Below, in pieces: positions 838-61,864 of a stretch of 64,000 nt of DNA. Position numbers and translations under genes: made by a program. The stretch covers positions 55,614,001 through 55,678,000 of the forward strand of contig OX597828.1 of NCBI GenBank assembly GCA_951406725.2, read 5' to 3'. The DNA comes from Octopus vulgaris. Lineage: Eukaryota. The first letter of the stretch is position 1; each line of letters opens with the position of its first letter. Below the pieces are notes generated by a model. That model was not told the origin of the DNA. It made no database searches and saw nothing but the letters and a program-made list of their open reading frames with translations.

Positions 838-1025
838 AGGGAGAGTTTACGAAAAAAAAAAACAAAAGACGAAGACAGATGGTGTACAAAACAAACATAT
901 GTATTAGTATAACGCTCAGGAATAGAAAAAAGGTTTTTTACGTTTCGAGCCTACGCTCTTCTACAGAAAGGAGCACAGAAATAAACAAAGAGGGAGCATA
1001 TGTGTGTAGTGGCTAAGGATTCACT
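838..1025 (-). mobile_element. ~185-bp PLE-derived terminal-repeat element carrying an HHR-like motif, copy 1
   Basis: Near-identical to 23678-23860, 24301-24484 (inverted) and 61659-61864; begins directly at a (TA)n tract; minus strand reads CTTT-CTGTAGA-A-GAGC-GTAG-GCTC-GAAAC-GTA-AAAA. Confidence 0.75.
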
Positions 1026-23677: not shown

Positions 23678-23678
<1 letters not shown>

Positions 23679-23856
23679 GGGAGAGTTTACGAAAAAAACA
23701 AAAGACGAAGACAGGTGGTGTACAAAACAAGCAGATGTATTAGTATAACACTCAGGAATAGAAAAAGTCTTTTACGTTTCAAGCCTACGCTCTTCTATAG
23801 AAAGGGACACAGAAAAAACAAGGAGAGAAAAAAATGTGTGTAGTGGCTAACGATCT

Positions 23857-23860
<4 letters not shown>
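23678..23860 (-). mobile_element. ~185-bp PLE-derived HHR element, copy 2
   Basis: Flanked on both sides by (TA)n; HHR core mutated to CTATAGA. Confidence 0.8.
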
Positions 23861-23903
<43 letters not shown>

Positions 23904-24300
23904 ATCTATGCATACACACAGACACACACACCTATTATTCGACCTTGTTACAGTGGGTATTTTAGAGACTTTTGTGTGAAATCAGTTTGAATGGACATTT
24001 AATGGAGACATATATATTCTATTTACTTTCGTCCATTATTCTTCGATTAATGAAGATGAACTGATAAAACATGTCAAATACTTAATAATAATTGAAGGAG
24101 ACGAATTTACAGCTATCATTTACAATTCAATTCTTGTTACGCTCCGGTGAGTTCTGACTAAGCAGAATTAATTTCGAAGATATTGCAACTAATACTAACA
24201 GATATGCCGTCCCTACAATACGTTTGCAACTATATACTCGCAAGAGACTAGATTTGATTGGGATTTGTGCGCTACTTTTGTTAACATGGCTTGCATTGTA

Positions 24301-24484
24301 TCAGTCGCCATGATAGATCGTTAGCCACTATACACATTTCTTTCTCTCCTTGTACTTTTCGGTGTCTCTTTCTGTAGAAGAGCGTAGGCTCGAAACGTAA
24401 AAGACTTTTTCTATTCCTGAGTGTTATACTAATACATCTGTTTGTTTTGTACACCACCTGTCCTCGTCTTCGTAAACTCTCCCT
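24301..24484 (+). mobile_element. ~185-bp PLE-derived HHR element, copy 3 (inverted relative to copy 2)
   Basis: Reverse complement of copies 1, 2 and 5; contains the motif at 24367-24404. Confidence 0.8.
24367..24404 (+). ncRNA. Minimal type I hammerhead-like motif with variant core CUGUAGA
   Basis: TCTTT-CTGTAGA-A-GAGC-GTAG-GCTC-GAAAC-GTA-AAAGA: stem I 5 bp, stem II 4 bp, palindromic ACGT stem III, GUA site. Confidence 0.65.
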
Positions 24485-25429
24485 ATATATCACACGCTCA
24501 CGTGGTCGCACATGTTGATCCTGTCGTTTCTTACCACACACGAGCCTCTCCACTGGACCTTCTATATACCCTTTACGGATTCTCCTTTGGACATTTATCC
24601 TCCGGCTGCACCTCTCCTACCTCCGGATCACTGTGGACTACTACTCTTGATGAAAAATCCTTGCGTTGTAGATGCTGCCTAGTTGGTACAGTCCCTGAAA
24701 GGATGGTAAAAGATGTACCAGATTCAAGAAATCTATAGAACCCCTTCTCCTCATATCTGACTGGTGGTCAATCTTAGAAATCAATATTTCATGAAGACGG
24801 ACTCCATTACATTAATATGTGGGGCAATTATAGATTGCTTTTTGACATGGCCAAATGTCTGGGTGATGAGTTTAATATTTAATATTACTATAAATGTAAC
24901 ATATGAAAATATTGTAACAATCATGTTTAATTTTAGATAGATCATTTCTGTGTTCTTTTAAAAATGGCGGGCTATAAGGAATTGATTGAGAACAGTAGAT
25001 ATTTTTATAATGAGCGTAACCAAGATTTTAGCATAGTAAGCAAACACGTTAGCTTTGGTTTCAATTGCAAACTTGAAACCATTCAACTACGCAGCCGATT
25101 CAGTGTCATTATTATTCAGTAGGCAATCAAACAACACTTCTTATGTTATTTCTTATATTATGTGTGGCACTACCATAGTCTACATTACGTGAAACCATGT
25201 AAAATATTCAACATACGTGTCTGAATGATGATGAGTCACGTCTTATGCAGATTCTCGAAAATGATTGCCCATGCTTATAATACATAGATAGATACATACA
25301 TACTTGCATTCCTACATACACCCATTTTTAACTGCCGTCCTGGGTCCATCTGCTCATTACAAACCGATTGTAGAAGATCTAATGTAAGTTATAAATGCAC
25401 CGTCCTCAACACATTACACAATTCTACAG

Positions 25430-29310: not shown

Positions 29311-29450
29311 AGCTGAAATTTACAGAAAAATAAAAGACGAAGATAGGTGTATAAATAACATAAATGACGCTGGGGAAGATGAGAAAGTCTTTTAGGTTTC
29401 GAGCCTACGCTCTTAATCAGAAATGAACAGGAGGAAATAAACGGCGAGTG
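29311..29450 (-). mobile_element. Diverged relative of the 185-bp PLE-HHR element, copy 4
   Basis: Minus strand TTT-CTGATTA-A-GAGCGTAGGCTC-GAAAC-CTA-AAAG; follows a (TA)n-rich tract. Confidence 0.65.
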
Positions 29451-61658: not shown

Positions 61659-61860
61659 AGGGAGAGTTTATGAAAAAAACAAAAGTCGAAGACAGGTGGT
61701 GTACAAAACAAACAGATGTATTAGTATAACACTCAGGAATAGAAAAAGTCTTTTACGTTTCAAGCCTACGCTCTTCTACAGAAAGTGACACAGAAAAAAC
61801 AAAGAGAGAGAGACAAGGAGAGAAAAAATGTCTGTAGTGGCTAATGATCTATCATGGCGA

Positions 61861-61864
<4 letters not shown>
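61659..61864 (-). mobile_element. ~185-200-bp PLE-derived HHR element, copy 5
   Basis: Flanked on both sides by (TA)n; shares terminus atcatggcgactga with copy 3. Confidence 0.8.

Follow-up and report, generated by a model that had tools for sequence, protein, structure and literature searches.

The window, by which we mean the whole stretch of 64,000 nucleotides analysed, contains five copies of a repeat, the number given by a first-pass annotation of the sequence; searches with blastn and nhmmer confirmed these five and located no further ones. Their positions and the features of the focal copy (copy 3) are listed in Table 1, with strands given in the hammerhead sense, i.e., plus for the focal copy and minus for the other four. 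The terminal sequence described as common to the copies was found in four of them, copy 4 being diverged, and the core CTGTAGA was confirmed in copies 1, 3, and 5; the different core of copy 2 retains U6. The copies had also been described as lying next to or inside (TA)n. This is correct for copies 1, 2, and 5, whereas the TATATAT of the focal copy belongs to the element itself, and the copy extends beyond it for ~180 nt. The focal sequence (24301..24665) aligned with the 5' region of an ORF-bearing copy of a Penelope-like element (PLE) at locus L134, across and beyond the usual 3' end, and none of 90 tail-anchored copies ran on past that end in the same way. The 430 nt between copies 2 and 3 had no match elsewhere in the sequences compared. 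The window (1–64000) is rich in microsatellites, and no tRNA gene, no tblastn match to the PLE protein, and no long complex ORF (after filtering) was found in it.

Table 1. Repeat copies in the window, elements of the focal copy, and loci of the sister lineage.
Feature	Position	Strand	Basis or remark
Copy 1, 5'-truncated pLTR	839..1020	-	U6; terminates in (TA)n
Copy 2	23678..23861	-	begins at uORF ATG; core CTATAGA; within (TA)n
Copy 3 (focal), 5' leader of PLE	24301..24484, continuing to ~24665	+	pLTR plus ~180 nt of 5' UTR
Copy 4, decayed, older subfamily	~29311..29447	-	core CTGATTA
Copy 5	61660..61864	-	begins at TCAGTC; U6; within (TA)n
TCAGTC, initiator-like	24301..24306	+	putative transcription start; 5' ends of copies
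Putative uORF, four codons (ATG, three codons, stop)	24310..24324	+	
Minimal type I hammerhead	24368..24403	+	sequence; consensus of minimal PLE hammerheads (PMC4209133) except position 6
Stem I	24368–24371/24400–24403	+	hammerhead of focal copy
Core; extra A	24372–24378; 24379	+	hammerhead of focal copy
U6 replacing canonical A6	24375	+	exact 28-mer counts; unselected sample
Stem II	24380–24383/24388–24391	+	hammerhead of focal copy
GAAA; ACGU palindrome; predicted cut	24392–24395; 24395–24398; after 24399	+	
TATATAT, element-encoded	24484..24490	+	usual 3' terminus; putative internal priming site for nicked (TA)n
Sister-lineage loci	L184, L186, L188, L194, L286–L315		

The hammerhead motif has C3, U4, G5, G8, A9, G12–A15.1, U16.1, the G10.1–C11.1 pair, an extra nucleotide, a palindromic helix III, and an NUH triplet, and lacks only the canonical A6. 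Stems I–III had been reported as retained, but stem III consists only of an A-U and a C-G pair without a loop, i.e., the ACGU palindrome of the minimal hammerhead. A scan of positions 24250–24520 against Rfam returned no hammerhead at E ≤ 10, and among the 150 of 312 Rfam matches listed for the window, there were only spurious matches of the miRNA type.

The repeat is the truncated pLTR of an autonomous PLE of the Neptune/Nematis type, in agreement with the PLE affiliation proposed in the annotation: ORF-bearing copies with RT and GIY-YIG hold the repeat. Among the best 30 genomic matches, the 3' end was fixed, and several copies shared sequence further upstream, which led into a C/T-rich region and then into an ORF for a GIY-YIG endonuclease and an RT. 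At L061, a near-complete ORF with one frameshift is followed by a unit with CTGTAGA, and the unit was found downstream of the ORF throughout L061–L065. At L135, L146, L147, and L148, the 3' region, the unit, the 5' UTR, and the ORF start follow one another as partial tandems. The ~190-nt unit is also located upstream of the ORF start codon and therefore represents the pLTR. Full-length PLEs with this terminus, which the annotation had proposed to seek, were found with the unit at both ends, and their order is the 3' region of the prior element, a TCAGTC-like start, a short uORF, the hammerhead, the tail, TATATAT, a leader of ~670 nt, and the ATG. In L128 and L134, this leader is 72% pyrimidine, measures 767 nt from the cut site to the ORF start, and contains 5–7 AG dinucleotides and five upstream ATGs.

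The PLE protein showed 50% identity over 483 amino acids to P0013, which matches both RVT_1 and GIY-YIG. The PLE ORF itself matched RVT_1 with an E-value of 6e-6, below the curated cut-off, and the YIG motif was present in the translations; the L061 protein, whose ORF has one frameshift, gave no Pfam GIY-YIG match, and the PLE ORF gave no match in the PDB. A CX2-5CxxC linker and the CCHH motif of the endonuclease, which are features of Neptune and Nematis (PMC8557442), were read in L040, L042, L044, and L060. Inverted, 5'-truncated partner copies were seen at L017, L106/L107, and L348/L349. The genome comprises 2.8 Gb in ~30 large contigs. When 100 stretches of 10 kb at round coordinates were sampled, two of which adjoin the window, the U6 lineage gave 36 matches, or 36 per Mb, corresponding to ~100,000 copies (Poisson range roughly 70,000–140,000). 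Fragments of a different PLE-like RT family were also seen at L065 (459–974 and 7188–8501) and L297, one of them just downstream of a U6 copy.

Position 6 was tabulated over the genomic copies, as the annotation had suggested. Across 17,348 exact 28-mers genome-wide, it was U in 16,703 (96.3%), C in 397, A in 197, and G in 51, and reversed-pattern controls gave 0 matches against the 16,703 of the U6 pattern. In an unselected 1 Mb, 28 of 30 core-bearing copies had U6 (one read by eye), with one C and one A. The A6U change is lineage-wide. U6 is fixed throughout the family, as the annotation had claimed for the core CUGUAGA, but N7 varies, so the core is CUGUNGA. A6 makes up 1.1% of the exact matches, which is within about twofold of neutral back-mutation as judged by the T-to-A rate at U4 (U4 was altered in 327 matches, and about one third of the first 100 had changed to A). 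The flanks of the 30 A6 loci examined were mostly those of U6 subfamilies. In an old set with a GUC triplet, for which position 6 and stem II were left free, the first 100 of 266 matches had U in 83, C in 13, and A in 4. GGGC/GCCC was considered as stem II of this old GUC subfamily and was rejected, the stem being mostly GAGC/GCTC; A6 occurred in one of five GGGC/GCCC matches. Copy 4 and L169, which are old and unselected, also have A6, and a small old A6 branch with the tetraloop may exist.

The CTGATTA of copy 4 had been taken as evidence of a hammerhead ancestry. It is weak evidence, given that the copy is old and decayed, that G8 is also lost, and that A6 occurs in 1.1% of matches in any case. 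The hammerhead origin of the U6 motif is instead supported by a sister lineage that has the canonical core CUGANGA. This lineage gave 5,356 matches, the first 100 of which had A6 in 96 and U6 in none, and 12 matches in the 1-Mb sample, corresponding to ~34,000 copies. It is distinguished by a 3-nt loop II and by a compensatory G-C in place of C-G at pair 4 of stem I, and it shares the layout of the U6 lineage and its (TA)n ends; from this common layout and the homology, it too appears to be a PLE. When a tree of 222 copies was built leaving out positions 6 and 7, the 193 tetraloop copies formed one clade (support 0.87), and the 29 triloop copies were placed apart. Single copies at L078 and L420 combine A6 and the tetraloop with sister-like 5' flanks and are possible intermediates or recombinants between the lineages.

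To describe the conservation of the fold, we used 225 copies, leaving out loci that had been selected for A6 or for stem II. Clustering by the columns outside the core gave five clusters (163, 19, 12, 8, and 6 copies), the 17 copies in smaller clusters being excluded, and the five subfamily consensuses are 9–25% apart. The core columns were invariant across all five (15 of 15, compared with 72 of 133 columns outside), although some loci came from patterns that fix the core, and it was largely these patterns that supplied the two oldest clusters, of 8 and 6 copies. Among the 36 columns of the hammerhead, only N7 and H17 varied, and H17 was A, C, or U but never G in a consensus. Stem II and loop II were invariant in sequence, and no stem change separates the subfamilies. 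U6 was present in 203 of the 208 clustered copies; that U6 itself is unchanged is not significant, because the same is true of about half of the outside columns. Contigs of four other organisms, aligned at 80% likeness and represented by the stronger rows (16 weaker ones not included), provided a check that is independent of these search patterns; apart from N7, H17, and two CpG sites, no position of the motif showed differences of at least 5%. The remaining core positions show no decay following the A6U change, which indicates that the hammerhead fold stayed under selection.

Paired changes in stems I and II were found in rare old copies, with 24 matches compared with 4 in controls, although several of the matches are not family members. 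The stems were paired in 90% of cells, and five pairs were changed on both sides, in 18 self-chosen rows of 33 that came partly from double-change patterns and are biased accordingly. Ten of 30 double changes pair, which alone is not above chance. The paired changes of the old copies bear on the proposal that the conserved block acts at the DNA level, as an internal promoter element, or is a chance passenger, and that its resemblance to a hammerhead is a relic. The block lies 70–100 nt after the putative transcription start, PLE promoters are located in the pLTR (PMC6765202), and the hammerhead strand folds no better than its shuffles (z from -0.6 to +0.8), all of which suit such a promoter. 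However, it does not account for the paired stem changes of the old copies, and N7 and H17, the two positions that a hammerhead leaves free, would be the only variable columns of the 36 with a chance near 1 in 630; we consider this explanation improbable.

A tail motif had 6,910 matches, and the ends of the copies were mapped in the first 90, from which 6 near-identical duplicates were removed. The 84 copies that remained were grouped by their starting point: 10 begin downstream (3') of the predicted cut, another 3 no more than 3 nt away from it, 37 between it and the uORF ATG, 24 at -10 to +1 of this ATG, and 10 further upstream, continuing into the PLE 3' region. When truncation at a uniform rate was taken as the expectation, no pile-up of 5' ends was detected at the predicted cut (3 of 74 within 3 nt, compared with 3.6 expected), which is spanned in 71 of the 84 copies. 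In the initiator-like zone, by contrast, 24 of the 34 copies that reach it stop at -10 to +1 of the ATG, where 3.2 were expected (P ~ 2e-17). The initiator consensus is TCAKTY, and transcription likely starts at the initiator-like TCAGTC. A splice acceptor was dropped as an explanation for the favoured 5' end, because the stop point, closely followed by an ATG and a stop codon, is found again in subfamilies and in the sister lineage at sites that lack a preceding AG. The ATG lies within ~10 nt of the putative start and is quickly followed by a stop, after four codons in the U6 lineage, where the stop may be TAG, TAA, or TGA and was present in 95 of 101 copies matched by script, and directly (ATG-stop) in the sister lineage. 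This short reading frame may represent an upstream ORF that is conserved, or else a promoter motif.

On the 3' side, 49 of the 84 junctions fell at (TA)3 or more under a strict rule, 16 were unparsed, and 19 lay at interrupted or other repeats; (TA)3 was also found at the 5' junction in 42 of 81 copies. The targeting of (TA)n reported in the annotation is borne out. In ORF-bearing copies of two subfamilies, TATATAT sits at the same junction, and two longer copies (L017 and L380) end at other internal words that match the microsatellites flanking them, which suggests that priming at (TA)n occurs by microhomology. From the cut to the 3' end, L134 measures 94 nt and L128 measures 99 nt. For PAc, a Poseidon element, RT initiates internally 85–92 nt past the cut, as computed from the published positions; uncut RNA is its main substrate, and initiation proceeds without homology to the target (PMC11167929). 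The short octopus copies likewise appear to have been templated on uncut RNA.

These ends suggest the following model. Transcription would begin at TCAGTC, the PLE endonuclease would nick (TA)n, and the nicked end would anneal to the internal UAUAU ~95 nt past the cut site. RT would then copy back toward the cap, giving solo copies of up to ~195 nt, and read-through RNA of tandem elements would give the longer copies. U6 is predicted to weaken the U-turn and to add a helix, U4-G5-U6 with A15.1-C-G, that holds the monomer off, and most template RNA would stay uncut as a result of this lock. The copy ends provide in vivo support for internal RT initiation, and they suggest that (TA)n targeting is based on microhomology.

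The first-pass annotation had treated the repeat as a discrete, non-autonomous mini-element of ~185 bp, and a separate mini-element or retrozyme that multiplied from a short master of its own, possibly by way of circular RNA, would explain why many copies begin at one position and why tandem triplets occur at 2 of 30 loci. However, the 84 tail-anchored copies do not form a discrete unit: their 5' ends lie 15 to >260 nt upstream of the anchor, in a continuum from which 10 copies reach the PLE 3' region. The repeat is continuous with an autonomous PLE whose ORF-bearing copies have the identical U6 core, several subfamilies, as well as the sister lineage, have the same stop point, and the units do not start at the cut site, so a separate short master is very unlikely. 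The two triplets (L019:1073–1670 and L022:1080–1694) are split by short (TA)n and have private changes in common, and they may reflect local duplication or retrozyme-like copying.

Whether the U6 fold is an active variant or serves recognition had been posed in the annotation, and these are the right pair of alternatives. In the reading that we prefer, to which we assign a probability of about one half, cleavage by the U6 hammerhead in the pLTR of this autonomous PLE would be slow and would require either dimerisation or the element's protein. What leads us to favour such attenuated, assisted cleavage is that variation follows a catalytic pattern: N7 and H17 alone are free, and no subfamily consensus has G at H17, as in an active core. 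A natural A6C hammerhead has low but detectable activity that is better with Mn2+ (PMC3088659, PMC7151607), the monomers of minimal hammerheads are described as inactive and their dimers as weak (PMC4209133), and the PAc hammerhead cleaves only with protein (PMC11167929).

It is also possible, at somewhat less than even odds, that the element is built exactly as described but that its U6 hammerhead is catalytically dead, the fold or a rod favoured by U6 being kept for binding the PLE protein or a host factor. We keep this reading close because the loop sequence is frozen too, stem II and the GUAG loop being invariant to a degree that catalysis would not require, and because no trace of cutting was seen in the templates. 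A complete mutational scan found low activity for every single and double mutant of CUGA apart from the C3-G8 swap (PMC9901934), and hammerhead mutants of PAc had no effect on insertion in vitro (PMC11167929). However, a dead fold would not explain the active-core pattern of free positions, and the canonical-core sister copies span their cut site too, so uncut templates are not peculiar to U6.

Folding predictions gave the lock helix a probability of 0.5–0.98 in six of nine U6 copies, at most 0.13 in the other three (L110, L342, and L345), and 0 in 10 of 10 A6 copies; the sister lineage has its own predicted off-fold, in which the 5' strand of stem I pairs with GAAAC. The model predicts that the lock helix would compete with both the active and the dimer forms, which would also suit a dead fold. 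A more elaborate scenario, which we regard as doubtful, has an active A6U hammerhead in at least five subfamilies and ~100,000 insertions, with the U6 lock being opened by the PLE protein and thereby timing cleavage to the transposition cycle; as read in that scenario, U6 arrived together with the GUAG tetraloop. The function of PLE hammerheads is described as unclear in PMC8557442. Should U6 prove able to cleave, the consensus for hammerheads and the descriptors used to search for them would have to be made wider, and very large families currently escape detection; should it prove unable, the octopus element would offer a clear example of selection maintaining a ribozyme fold without catalysis. 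The two sister lineages, with A6 and U6 in one genome and back-mutants in every subfamily, provide a ready comparison for cleavage, protein binding, and insertion.

The element type, the pLTR hammerhead, and the solo truncated copies are already known. The minimal hammerheads of PLE pLTRs (Cervera and de la Peña 2014, PMC4209133) share with the octopus motif a U-rich 5' flank, a short stem I, the extra nucleotide between A9 and G10.1, G10.1–C11.1, a palindromic 15.2–16.2 without loop III, an NUH triplet, and an occurrence mostly as solo copies of truncated PLEs. Here, however, U6 replaces A6, whereas the core variant described in the available part of that study is U3-A8, and its descriptor demanded the catalytic boxes. 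We found no A6U hammerhead and no octopus PLE hammerhead in the literature searched, although the published PLE hammerhead variants may include A6U. CUGU had three matches in supplement file 2 of PMC4209133, and the two examined both lie outside the core. Penelope families of Octopus vulgaris are listed in PMC13282606, in the accessible part of which the word ribozyme does not occur.

In protein and arrangement, the element resembles the EN+ PLEs Neptune and Nematis (Craig et al. 2021, PMC8557442), which have RT, the linker, and, at the C terminus, GIY-YIG with CCHH, partial tandems as pLTRs, and a microsatellite bias; the octopus ORF, in contrast, is preceded by a pyrimidine-rich leader and begins ~770 nt downstream of the cut, and its clade is assigned by motifs. 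PAc, the Poseidon of Anolis (Frangieh et al. 2024, PMC11167929), is similar in its internal RT start ~90 nt past the cut, its AT-rich targets, and its uncut RNA template, but its start is non-homologous to the target and its core is canonical, whereas the usual 3' end of the octopus copies coincides with an internal TATATAT that matches (TA)n. The Bcep176 A6C hammerhead (PMC3088659, PMC7151607) is likewise naturally altered at position 6, with the remainder of its core intact; it has C and not U, is confined to one phage locus, and has a measured activity that is low and prefers Mn2+, whereas the octopus variant is known from sequence. Non-LTR retrozymes (PMC7229834; bioRxiv 10.64898/2026.07.22.740005) are likewise non-coding (150–400 nt), pLTR-related, and equipped with a type I hammerhead, in contrast to which the octopus copies are mostly solo, variable in length, and continuous with an autonomous PLE.

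Two minor observations were made among the other loci. At L312, a U6-lineage copy has a sister-lineage copy fused directly to its 3' end, a junction that suggests template switching or insertion at one target. A further hammerhead-like family, which combines CUGAUGA with a long stem II, was seen at L075, L176, L336, and L344.
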